Positions 17,745 to 21,363 of a stretch of DNA of 64,000 nt are shown in pieces. The DNA is from an uncultured Alphaproteobacteria bacterium. Lineage in GTDB: Bacteria > Pseudomonadota > Alphaproteobacteria > HIMB59 > GCA-002718135. The stretch is taken from assembly GCA_902574475.1 (NCBI GenBank), contig CACGNZ010000003.1:17798-81797 (forward strand), in the 5' to 3' direction. The first letter of the stretch is position 1. Every line of letters starts with the position of its first letter. The position numbers and the translations under genes were made by a program. The notes beneath the pieces were generated by a model. The model did no database searches, had not been told where the DNA came from, and saw nothing but the letters and a program-made list of their open reading frames with translations.

Positions 17745-20700
17745 ATGAATTATACACCTTTTATGTCAGTTTTTGATGTTGATCCACCTATTATTGATAA
17801 TAAACATTTAATTAAATGGTTAAAGATTAATTTTTCTTTCCTAAGAAATAAATTACTCAAAATTAAACAACTTGATAGTGAAAGGGATATAAATTTTATT
17901 ATATTCATAAATAATAAAAAAAAATATGTATTAAAAATTTCAAACCCATCAGAAAAAATAAATATATTAAAATACCAAGATAGATTAATTAATTATTTAC
18001 GAAGTGATCTTAGTCTTAAATCTTTTATTCCAAAAATACACCATACAAAGATTGTAAAATATTTAGATAAAAAAAATAGAGAATGCTTTGTTAGGATCTT
18101 ATCTTATATTGAAGGGCGCATGTATGGAGATACAAAAAGTAACAATAAAATTGAAAATTCTTTAGGTAAGTTACTTGGAAAAGTATCAACTAAGTTGAAA
18201 ACATTTAACGATATAGATGCCCATAGAAATTTTATTTGGGATCCATCAAATATAAAATGGATTAAAAAAGACATTAATATTTTTACTGGTTCAAAAAAAT
18301 TAATTTTATTAAAATGTTTTTCAGAATATGAAAAATTTGTAAAAAATAATTTAAATAAATTAAGATATTCAATAACTCATTCAGATCCAAATAATTATAA
18401 TATTGTTATTAAAGAAAACAATGTTTGTGGTTTACTAGATTATGGAGATTCTATTTATTCTCCAACAATAAATGATTTAGCTATATGCCTTTCATATGCA
18501 TTAATGAACAATGATAATATTTATCTTACACTTAAAAATATAATAACAGAATACAATAAACAGTTTTCTATTAATGAGGATGAAATTAATTCATTAATAT
18601 CATTATGTAAGTCAAGACTTATGATTACTGTTGTAATGGCAAAAAAACAAAGAATTAAATATCCATCAAATCAATATTTAAGCATTAGTGAGAAAGATGC
18701 ATGGTCTTTATTAGAAAAATTAGACAAAATTCCTATCAATTTTTTAATATATATTGTTCGCGAAATATGCGGCTTTGATATTATTAACCATCATAATGAA
18801 ATTATAAATTATATAAATAAATTCAACTTTGGTAATATTTTTAAATTTAATTTACTTGATAAAAATAAATCTATCTTAAAATTAAGTTCTGATTCACCTT
18901 TATTAAAAGGTAATCCAGATAATAATTCGCTTAAGAAAAGAGTTAATAAAATATTTAAAGAAGATAATTCTCGTATAGGTATAGGTTTATACAATGAAAA
19001 AAGAAAAGTTTATAAGGGACCTAACTTTATTTCTGAATTAAATACGAATGAAAGACGTAATATTCACTTAGGAATTGATATTTTTATTGATCAGGGAACA
19101 GATTTATTTGCTCCAATAGATGGTAAAATTATAATTTTAAAAAATAATAATTTTAAATATGACTATGGCCCCACTCTAGTTTTAGAACATAGTTTTAAAA
19201 AATATAAATTTTATACTCTATACGGTCATTTATCTAAAATAATGTTTCAAAAACTAAAAATTGGAAAAAAAATTAAGAAAGGTGAATGGATTGGTAAAAT
19301 TGGTAATTCTAATGAAAATGGAAAATGGTTACCACATTTACATTTTCAAATTATTTTAGATTTATTACGACATGATAAGAATTTTCCAGGAGTAGGTGAA
19401 GAATTTTTATTCAATATTTGGAATAAAATTTCACCTGATCCAAATTTAATTCTACGAATTCCAAAATCTTTTTATTCCAATAATAATAAAAATTTTAAAG
19501 ATACTTTAAAGAAAAGAAGAAAAAATATTTCTGATAATTTATCAATTTCTTACAAGAAACCTCTTCATATGCTTGAAGCTAAAGATCAGTATTTTTTTGA
19601 TAGATATGGCAGGAGATACTTAGATTGTGTAAATAATATTTCCCATGTTGGACATTCAAATTCCTATGTCCATGAAGCTATGACTCAGCAAAATTTAAAA
19701 CTTAATACTAATACTAGATATCTATACGATACAATTAACGATTATAGTGAATTACTTTTAAGTAAGTTTCCAAAGAAATTAAATAAGATATTTTTCGTAT
19801 GTACAGGATCTGAAGCTAATGATTTAGCTTATAGAATAGCCCAAACTTATACTAGTGCAAAAGATGTCTTTGTGATGGACAATGCTTATCATGGGCATAC
19901 CAATGCTTTAATTGATCTAAGTCCATATAAATTTAATAGTAAGGGTGGTTCGGGTAAAAAAGATTATGTTCATGTATTAGACATGCCTGATCCCCTAAGA
20001 GGTAAGTGGAGATATCAAAATTCAAATTGGATTCAAAAATATATAGATGAAGCTAAAACGGTAATTAGAAATAAAATTAAAGAAACCAATATTGCATGTT
20101 TTTTTACTGAATGTATACTTGGTTGTGGCGGTCAAGTAATTCTTCCAAAAAATTATTTAAAAGAAATATTTTCAGAAATTAGAAGAAACAATGCATTATG
20201 TATTGTTGACGAGGTACAAACTGGTTTTGGACGCGTTGGAAGACAATTTTGGTCATTTGAAGAGCATGATGTCGTTCCTGATATAGTAACCTTGGGCAAA
20301 CCTATGGGCAATGGTCACCCTATAGCTGCTGTTATAACTACAGAAAAAATTGCTTCAACTTTTAATAACGGGATGGAATATTTTAACTCATTCGGTGGTA
20401 ATCCTGTTTCCTGTGCTATCGGTAAAGCAGTATTAGAGACTATTGATAATAATAAATTACAAAAAAATGCTTTGTTAGTTGGTAATTATTTTTTAAAAGA
20501 ATTAAAAAAAATACAACTTAAATATAAAAAATATATTAGTGAAGTTAGAGGTAGGGGGCTTTTTTTAGGAATAGATATTATTCAGAATAGTAATGTGTCT
20601 AAACCAAATAAAAAATTAGCTAAACTGCTTATAAATTATATGAAAAATCAAGGTATTTTATTGAGCACTGATGGACCTTATGACAATGTTATTAAAATAA

Positions 20701-20777
20701 AACCACCTCTTGTATTTACAAAATTAAATGTTGATCAGGTATGTAAAAACTTAGAAACTTTCTTTAAAAAATTATAA
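17745..20777 (+). CDS. Tri-domain fusion: APH/hydroxylysine-kinase-like kinase + M23 (LytM) domain + class III PLP enzyme of the AGXT2L (phospho-lyase) type
   Basis: Kinase: HSDPNNYN (HxDxxxxN) and LLDYGDS. M23: HLGID (HxxxD) and HLHFQ (HxH). PLP domain: [44 protein letters not shown]. The start is ambiguous (ATG 17724, 17745 or 17763). Confidence 0.85.
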   Translation: [1010 protein letters not shown]

Positions 20778-21363
20778 AATATATTCCATAACTAATCATT
20801 AGCAGACCAATGTTTAGATCAATCCAAAACCAAGTTTTATTTGAATAAATATATTTTGATAAAAACTTTGACATATATCCCAAAGAAAAGAAAAACAAAA
20901 AACTAGCTGAAATTGCTCCAACGCCAAATGAAAATTGATCATTAAAATTTGTTGATAATGATCCCAGCAAAATAATTGTATCTAGATAAACATGAGGATT
21001 TGCGTATGTAATAAGGAATAAGGTAATTAATACTTTTCCGTATTCGTTAATTATATTTAATTTTTTATTTATATCTTTAATTTGATTTAATTTTATAACT
21101 TTATTTAATCCATAAAATATAAGCCAAATTCCACCTAATACTTTTATTATTCCTATGATACTTGGATTAATTTGAACAATATAATTAGATAGATATATTC
21201 CAATTACAATTAATAAACTGTCAGATAGACTGCAAAATAAAGTTACTGTAAAAACATAAGATTTTTTAAGCCCTTGTTGAATTACAAATAAATTTTGCGG
21301 TCCTATGGCTAAAATTAATGTTCCTCCAATTATTAATCCTTGGATAAAATCATAAATATACAT
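20764..21363 (-). CDS. LysE/ArgO-family basic amino acid exporter
   Basis: 199 aa, 6 TM, N-terminal GPQNLFVIQQGL motif. Confidence 0.85.
   Translation of the reverse strand: MYIYDFIQGLIIGGTLILAIGPQNLFVIQQGLKKSYVFTVTLFCSLSDSLLIVIGIYLSNYIVQINPSIIGIIKVLGGIWLIFYGLNKVIKLNQIKDINKKLNIINEYGKVLITLFLITYANPHVYLDTIILLGSLSTNFNDQFSFGVGAISASFLFFFSLGYMSKFLSKYIYSNKTWFWIDLNIGLLMISYGIYFIIF

Follow-up and report, generated by a model that had tools for sequence, protein, structure and literature searches.

A kinase-M23-PLP fusion of an uncultured marine alphaproteobacterium: a widespread bacterial architecture with predicted hydroxylysine-kinase/phospho-lyase chemistry

What a single bacterial polypeptide might do with a kinase, an M23 peptidase-type domain and a pyridoxal phosphate (PLP) domain is the question raised by a gene within 64,000 nucleotides (nt) of DNA from an uncultured alphaproteobacterium of the HIMB59 lineage (contig CACGNZ010000003.1, positions 17,798 to 81,797). 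The whole stretch is referred to as the window, and positions are counted from its first letter. The first-pass annotation of the locus, made from the letters alone, described a fusion protein of about 1010 amino acids (aa) that would phosphorylate an amino alcohol and then eliminate phosphate and ammonia. Homology supports and strengthens this reading, and the explanation favoured as a whole, with a probability of roughly 0.65, is that the gene product is a catabolic enzyme of the hydroxylysine-kinase/phospho-lyase type, cytoplasmic and self-contained. The three-domain fusion is conserved over its whole length in many phyla, and the gene is a further member of a catalogued, widespread architecture and not a new system. 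A hidden Markov model (HMM) search with the Pfam profiles APH, Peptidase_M23 and Aminotran_3 confirmed all three of the domains that had been described, in the following order (residue numbers of domains and motifs follow the 1010-aa form):

17745..20777, plus strand: three-domain fusion gene, 1010 aa plus stop
17745..18734, plus strand: APH-fold kinase domain resembling hydroxylysine kinase (HYKK), aa 1-330 (Pfam APH, 1.8e-9)
18735..18974, plus strand: linker 1, a poorly conserved helical connector from the kinase to the M23 domain, aa 331-410
18975..19379, plus strand: Peptidase_M23 domain, aa 411-545 (Pfam M23, 3e-17)
19380..19544, plus strand: linker 2, between the M23 and PLP domains, aa 546-600
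19545..20774, plus strand: class-III PLP domain, assigned by homology to the phospho-lyase clade, aa 601-1010 (Pfam Aminotran_3, 2.1e-77)

The assignment of the PLP domain to the phospho-lyase clade draws on several comparisons of sequence and predicted structure. The Schiff-base lysine is K852 (nt 20298-20300) and the PLP-binding residues are D822 and Q825; all three are conserved in every protein of a sample of 69 fusion members, each taken from a different 50%-identity cluster. The block that had been likened to mammalian AGXT2L1 (ETNPPL) and AGXT2L2 (PHYKPL) spans aa 835-859 (nt 20247-20321) and is identical to human ETNPPL at 20 of its 25 residues. The best sequence matches of the domain in the PDB are human ETNPPL (6TOR, 7e-122, 411 bits) and A1RDF1 of Arthrobacter (5G4I, 1.5e-85, 291 bits), followed by racemases and transaminases at 2e-43 or weaker and at most 152 bits, and the earlier description of the domain as phospho-lyase-like and not a transaminase holds at the level of homology. 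The same two structures lead a Foldseek search with the AlphaFold 2 (AF2) model (6TOR first, 45% identity, TM 0.80; 5G4I second, 37% identity, TM 0.77). An HMM trained on PLP domains taken from 69 diverse fusion proteins scores ETNPPL at 614 bits, vertebrate proteins named PHYKPL by their sources at 589-616 bits, A1RDF1 at 446 bits and the window's other class-III aminotransferase (33665..34999) at 178 bits.

These scores bear on the alternative that the PLP domain is an ordinary class-III transaminase to which the kinase and M23 domains are attached as functionally unrelated passengers. Two MarineAlpha5 homologues (P0020 and P0025) carry the source name '5-aminovalerate aminotransferase DavT', and NCBIfam transaminase models match the fusion at 160-245 bits, both of which speak for a transaminase. 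However, all of these matches lie far below the curated cut-offs, phospho-lyases score two to three times as high as any transaminase, and the three domains stay together across phyla, which leaves this alternative very improbable. Since the PLP domain is allied with the phospho-lyases and two further domains are present, the name DavT on the two homologues is probably a misannotation, and the generic name aminotransferase that sources give to some other homologues is likely to be one as well.

The kinase domain contains the catalytic loop HSDPNNYN (aa 212-219, nt 18378-18401; H212-x-D214-xxxx-N219), the Mg-binding motif DYGD (aa 232-235, nt 18438-18449; D232-x-G-D235) and the ATP-binding lysine K64. 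Its catalytic residues are kept in 64-69 of the 69 members (K64 in 68; D214, N219, D232 and D235 in all). As a single sequence, the domain found nothing beyond a chance match in the PDB. A profile of 16 diverse kinase domains of the family reached homoserine kinase II (2PPQ, 53 bits), amicoumacin kinase (6SUI, 52 bits) and 6EF6 (39 bits, 4e-9). HYKK (AGPHD1) sequences were gathered with a human HYKK sequence that served as a homologue-search query only; the query returned an identical database protein together with about 100 proteins named 'hydroxylysine kinase' by their sources. In a BLASTP comparison the window kinase domain is 26% identical to Papio HYKK over 319 residues (E = 7e-24), and the kinase profile scores full-length source-named HYKKs at 250-260 bits, about five times its score for the best other solved APH-fold kinase. 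Because of this difference (250-260 vs 53 bits), the kinase domain is classified on sequence grounds as specifically HYKK-like, a closer relationship to AGPHD1 than the shared APH family membership that had been put forward.

Taken together with the PLP domain, this makes it very probable that the protein follows a kinase-then-lyase logic on an amino alcohol. In the first step the HYKK-like domain would phosphorylate the hydroxyl of a vicinal amino alcohol, H2N-CH2-CH(OH)-R. In the second step the PLP domain would bind the neighbouring amine as an aldimine and eliminate phosphate, and the resulting enamine or imine would then hydrolyse to an aldehyde and ammonium. With 5-hydroxy-L-lysine or a close analogue as substrate, the product would be 2-aminoadipate semialdehyde. 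The predicted chemistry matches that of the animal hydroxylysine pathway, in which a hydroxyl next to an amine is phosphorylated, phosphate and ammonia are eliminated in a PLP-dependent reaction, and the passage from HYKK to PHYKPL yields aminoadipate semialdehyde (PMC5200902). Joining the domains would stop the phospho-intermediate from escaping, and a single gene would give a streamlined marine bacterium both ammonium and a carbon skeleton. A substrate of the 5-hydroxylysine type is favoured because the kinase is specifically HYKK-like, and the odds given to a hydroxylysine-like substrate fall slightly short of even.

The lyase does not indicate the substrate, because its PLP domain is equidistant from the two animal enzymes (46.9% identity to ETNPPL, 45.1% to PHYKPL) and the animal pair is nested among bacterial sequences. 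In a neighbour-joining tree of PLP domains (100 bootstraps, rooted on the window's other class-III aminotransferase), ETNPPL and PHYKPL form one clade (99/100) within the bacterial fusion sequences, which are not monophyletic, and this nesting implies that the animal duplication is younger than the divergence from the bacterial sequences. The phylogeny proposed as a check in the first-pass annotation thus does not discriminate between the ETNPPL and PHYKPL substrates.

The same two steps might be carried out on ethanolamine or another small amino alcohol in place of hydroxylysine, with 1-amino-2-propanol, 4-amino-3-hydroxybutyrate and 2-hydroxyputrescine as candidates. The PLP domain is as close to ETNPPL as to PHYKPL in both HMM score and identity, and the database entry for A1RDF1 (Arthrobacter aurescens TC1, 5G4I/5G4J), which is the one bacterial relative to have been characterised, names it a phospholyase, presumably one that acts on O-phosphoethanolamine. 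A1RDF1 belongs to the same phospho-lyase clade as the fusion PLP domain (37% identity), but it is a stand-alone 446-aa enzyme without a kinase or M23 domain and is farther from the window PLP domain than the animal enzymes are (446 vs about 600 bits). Moreover, free hydroxylysine would be no obvious abundant substrate for an open-ocean oligotroph, and an APH-fold amino-alcohol kinase operates in the Mycobacterium RMM/AAUM system; 6EF6, one of the matches of the kinase profile, is taken here to be that kinase, although its PDB molecule name is merely 'aminoglycoside phosphotransferase'. In the RMM/AAUM microcompartment of Mycobacterium and Rhodococcus, an APH-fold (S)-1-amino-2-propanol kinase and a class-III phospho-lyase serve amino-alcohol catabolism, and both the system and the paper on the kinase are cited in PMC8007038 and PMC11346464. 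Unlike the fusion, these are separate proteins inside a protein shell and without an M23 domain, and the similarity of the fusion kinase to them is far weaker than to HYKK: the kinase profile gives about 255 bits to HYKKs against 39 to 6EF6 and 53 to homoserine kinase II. Known ethanolamine kinases, as a matter of general knowledge, fall in the choline-kinase branch and not in the HYKK branch. A small amino alcohol as the substrate is therefore considered rather unlikely.

Gene neighbourhoods in distant loci offer a weak hint at collagen-type hydroxylated amino acids. A gene of the OCD/mu-crystallin family lies directly upstream of the fusion on the same strand in L053 (L053:4514-5788) and L059 (L059:4806-5795) and two genes upstream in L074 (cluster c31), and a proline-racemase-family gene lies directly upstream in L069 (L069:793-1827). 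These two families, the only recurring metabolic neighbours in the distant loci, are used in the bacterial catabolism of hydroxyproline, a collagen-derived amino acid, and the cyclic imine that arises from aminoadipate semialdehyde might likewise be a substrate for an imine reductase of the OCD family. Across phyla the fusion has no conserved operon partner: the most frequent Pfam families occur in at most 4-5 of 129 neighbouring proteins and the same-strand neighbours are heterogeneous, which fits a self-contained enzyme.

The domain that joins the two catalytic modules carries the M23 motifs HLGID (aa 441-445, nt 19065-19079) and HLHFQ (aa 531-535, nt 19335-19349), with H441, D445 and H533 as zinc ligands and H495 and H531 as catalytic residues. 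These motifs and the two of the kinase are intact at the places originally given for them, and hydropathy agrees with the earlier remark that the protein has no signal peptide, with neither a signal peptide nor a transmembrane segment in the fusion protein (maximum Kyte-Doolittle value over 19 residues, 1.56; N-terminus, 0.49). H441, D445, H531 and H533 are conserved in 69 of 69 members and H495 in 67, and a further set of residues is invariant outside the M23 signature (E418, R420, Y423, R438, H482, N525, W528 and Q535). The M23 domain is better conserved than the kinase domain, with a mean pairwise identity of 43.7% and 16.3% near-invariant positions compared with 30.5% and 4.5% in the kinase and 51% and 17.5% in the PLP domain. 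The near-invariance of the zinc and catalytic residues, together with a conservation above that of the kinase, implies as far as sequence can tell that the metal site is functional and that the domain has a real catalytic role.

The M23-domain profile of the fusion family matches the lytic endopeptidases 8S3M, lysostaphin, LytM, zoocin A and ShyA at 6e-11 to 1e-5, with EnvC and SpoIIQ among the weak matches. The HxxxD and HxH motifs and the catalytic histidine are common to the fusion and to secreted M23/LytM endopeptidases such as lysostaphin, LytM and ShyA. In contrast to these, the M23 domain of the fusion is internal to a cytoplasmic enzyme and has its own family-specific invariants; the characterised members are typically exported and act on the cell wall or on extracellular glycyl bonds, whereas the fusion protein lacks a signal peptide and transmembrane segment and embeds the domain between cytoplasmic enzymes. 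An alternative is that the domain is non-enzymatic and acts as a zinc-stabilised scaffold, an oligomerisation module or a regulatory module joining kinase and lyase. The existence of non-catalytic M23/LytM regulators (EnvC and SpoIIQ, the weak profile matches) and the position between two enzymes are in its favour, as is the fact that we know of no substrate for any cytoplasmic M23 domain. However, the catalytic residues are gone from non-catalytic LytM domains such as EnvC, whereas the M23 domain of the fusion retains them. The additional invariant arginine, glutamate and tyrosine positions and the conservation above that of the kinase domain also argue against a purely structural role, which is judged unlikely.

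Under the favoured two-step chemistry, an active M23 domain would most likely act before the kinase and hydrolyse a small peptide, an N-acyl conjugate or another amide-linked precursor to set the amino alcohol free. Such a precursor-releasing function is the favoured role for the domain, although its probability is low. Possible precursors are small glycyl peptides that contain hydroxylysine, of the collagen type or another, and hydroxylysine that is N-acylated or held in an isopeptide linkage. The fuller proposal, in which a cytoplasmic M23 zinc amidase or peptidase and the two other domains release, phosphorylate and eliminate within one polypeptide, is speculative and, as a whole, unlikely. 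If true, it would give an M23 domain its first metabolic role outside the cell wall and would point to an uncharacterised nitrogen-scavenging route in abundant marine bacteria and in many soil phyla.

Several observations weigh against the favoured explanation. ETNPPL and PHYKPL lie at equal distances from the PLP domain, so that both lyase phylogeny and lyase HMM are uninformative on the substrate, and hydroxyproline-type neighbours occur in just 4 of the 26 loci from other phyla. In the window itself, no gene for an aminoadipate-semialdehyde dehydrogenase, another aldehyde dehydrogenase or a lysine-pathway enzyme was found within about 10 kb of the fusion. The literature searched contains no measured activity for any bacterial member. 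The proposed M23 role has active-site conservation as its sole basis, and channelling is without structural support because the domain arrangement in the AF2 model is unreliable (predicted TM score 0.57). With a mean predicted local distance difference test (pLDDT) value of 77.9, the full-length model is good within domains and unreliable for their packing, and residues 578-615 fall below a pLDDT of 50. This region of low confidence includes part of linker 2, in which G549 and R591 are the only near-invariant positions. Linker 1 has 20% mean pairwise identity, 0% near-invariant and no invariant positions among the 69 members, and aligns contiguously with the kinase and M23 domains in hundreds of representatives.

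The comparison with animal enzymes extends over both catalytic domains. The fusion kinase is homologous to HYKK over the full length, and the PLP domain shares 45-47% of its residues with PHYKPL and ETNPPL, together with the Schiff-base lysine block. Whereas the window enzyme is one polypeptide, animal HYKK, PHYKPL and ETNPPL are separate polypeptides without an M23 domain, and the later split of ETNPPL and PHYKPL means that the bacterial substrate is not readable from the animal pair. The link between the two kinds of system is itself not new. Veiga-da-Cunha et al. 2012 (J Biol Chem 287:7246) reportedly deduced the functions of AGXT2L1, AGXT2L2 and AGPHD1 from bacterial bi- and tri-functional homologues that carry an APH-family kinase, and we take the proteins described by the NCBIfam models PRK06148 and PRK06149 to be these 'bi- or tri-functional' homologues. 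The fusion argument of the first-pass annotation is this published inference read in the opposite direction. PMC12138971 cites the 2012 study to illustrate that a gene fusion can disclose what two uncharacterised partners do, and PMC5714238 lists it as a comparative-genomics-assisted identification. A literature search on PRK06148 and PRK06149 returned nothing relevant, and the literature searched holds neither an assay of a bacterial three-domain member nor an account of its M23 domain.

The novelty that had been implied for the fusion did not survive comparison with family models and genomes. PRK06148 ('hypothetical protein') matches end to end (residues 46-1015 against positions 29-1009 of a 1015-position profile) with 1020.9 bits, below its curated cut-off of 1128 bits, and PRK06149 ('aminotransferase') also matches, at 541 bits. 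The PRK06148/PRK06149 three-domain family has the same domain order and length as the window protein, and the score below the cut-off indicates that the window protein represents a diverged, AT-rich marine lineage, by sequence a relative of the PRK06148 family with the same architecture. In a homologue search the three Pfam domains recurred together in more than 120 clusters; a single cluster at 99% identity has 968 member sequences. A scan of one genome per species found at least 534 relatives. Full-length matches with 36-42% identity occur in the Chloroflexota, Acidobacteriota, Bacteroidota, Actinomycetota, delta-proteobacteria, Gemmatimonadota and Deinococcota. Residues 1-590 used as a query retrieved 519 clusters at 50% identity (E<=1e-30), in which kinase, linker and M23 domain align as one stretch. 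The window falls among uncultured marine Alphaproteobacteria, with 94-99% identity to sequences of single amplified genomes, 74% to a 'MarineAlpha5' bin and 62% to a HIMB59-type metagenome-assembled genome. Overall, the fusion is neither rare nor local and occurs in hundreds of species of at least seven phyla, abundant ocean lineages included. The functional logic is thus already present in the literature and in annotation models, to which the window adds an uncultured marine alphaproteobacterial member; the remaining interest lies in the strongly conserved cytoplasmic M23 domain and in the bacterial substrate. Solving both would define a route by which environmental bacteria break down amino alcohols or hydroxylysine.

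At about 27% GC the window is AT-rich, and the longest plus-strand frame at the locus runs uninterrupted from 17724 to 20777 (1017 codons), with a chance expectation of about 3e-36 for open reading frames (ORFs) this long in six frames at this GC content. Single amplified genomes, metagenome-assembled genomes and complete chromosomes from many phyla contain this ORF at full length, in 69 independent loci. An assembly or gene-calling artefact that joins separate genes is refuted for the window by the continuous frame and its conservation, and its probability is negligible, even though an excess of representatives ending just after the M23 domain could be taken as a sign that split forms exist. 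This excess (P0121-P0269) lies about 575-600 residues into the protein, with 19 representatives in a 25-aa bin compared with about three in each later bin. Some of these are clearly truncated by contig ends, and some lineages may encode the kinase-M23 part and the lyase as separate genes.

Three in-frame ATG codons could serve as the start, at 17724 (1017 aa), 17745 (1010 aa) and 17763 (1004 aa). Close homologues are 1003-1011 aa long, gene callers chose the equivalent of 17745 in close relatives (1009-1010 aa), and the first methionine conserved in the clade is residue 7 of the 1010-aa form, which corresponds to 17763. From these lengths and the conserved methionine, the start is placed at 17745 or 17763; a start at 17724 would give an overlap of 20 nt with the divergent PfkB gene upstream. 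The span of 17745-21363 first reported for the fusion begins at the ATG of the 1010-aa form, and 21363 is the far end of the adjacent LysE-family gene, the fusion itself ending at 20777. The genes that surround the fusion in the window are as follows:

14149..15012: PhyH-family Fe(II)/2-oxoglutarate dioxygenase (Pfam 4e-40), 2.7 kb upstream of the fusion
14933..15949, plus strand: IU-nucleoside hydrolase
15946..16866, minus strand: IndA/PsuG-like gene of the pseudouridine glycosidase family (Pfam 5e-100)
16856..17743, minus strand: PfkB-family kinase gene, divergent from the fusion
20764..21363, minus strand: LysE-family transporter gene (Pfam LysE 1.9e-24, 86.7 bits vs a cut-off of 25.6)

The LysE-family gene is convergent with the fusion and their 3' ends overlap by 14 nt, as had been noted. 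Its description as a LysE/ArgO basic amino acid exporter holds for the Pfam family and not for the specific function, since the gene scores below the equivalog cut-offs for the lysine exporter (TIGR00948, 134.6 vs 213.65 bits) and for ArgO (NF006801, 125.2 vs 298 bits). The overlap had also been read as a hint at a lysine-like or hydroxylysine-like substrate. This use of the gene was rejected: the adjacency is confined to one syntenic clade of marine alphaproteobacteria, and the 26 loci compared in other phyla all lack it. Within the marine clade the surroundings of the fusion are fully syntenic down to 58% protein identity, in the order PhyH-family dioxygenase, IU-nucleoside hydrolase, IndA/PsuG-like gene (minus), PfkB kinase (minus), fusion (plus), LysE (minus), DUF4864 and SRAP, and the LysE adjacency is, because of this, regarded as part of the general synteny. 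Nor would a catabolic route call for an exporter, and a functional link between the two genes is not supported.

The genes immediately upstream, divergent from the fusion, form a nucleoside-salvage cluster (14933..17743), in which the IndA/PsuG-like and PfkB genes share 11 nt, as would be expected if they encoded a pseudouridine kinase and its partner glycosidase. Only 1-19 nt separate the PfkB start (17743) from the fusion start (17745 or 17763), so each promoter must lie inside the other gene. Within the PfkB gene and antisense to it lies a 95-aa, Ile/Phe/Leu-rich ORF on the plus strand (17052..17339), most probably a frame left open by chance in AT-rich DNA. No RNA element or tRNA was found near the fusion gene. 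Among the distant loci, a homologue of the PhyH gene (cluster c17) lies four genes from the fusion in the Gemmatimonadota locus L075, a recurrence that might point to a hydroxylase producing the kinase substrate, and a GH63-like glycoside hydrolase gene overlaps the fusion stop by 3 nt in L066.

Past the LysE gene (21399..25568) follow, in order, a DUF4864 gene whose match is just below the Pfam cut-off, an SRAP/YedK-type gene, an HpcH/citrate-lyase-beta-like (malyl-CoA-lyase-like) gene and sucC-sucD. The GTG start of the SRAP/YedK-type gene shares base 21857 with the last base of the stop codon of the preceding ORF. The second class-III aminotransferase of the window (33665..34999), an ordinary member of its class, is flanked by three transporter genes:

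32747..33640, minus strand: EamA-family transporter gene
35349..36224, plus strand: EamA-family transporter gene
36255..37133, plus strand: EamA-family transporter gene

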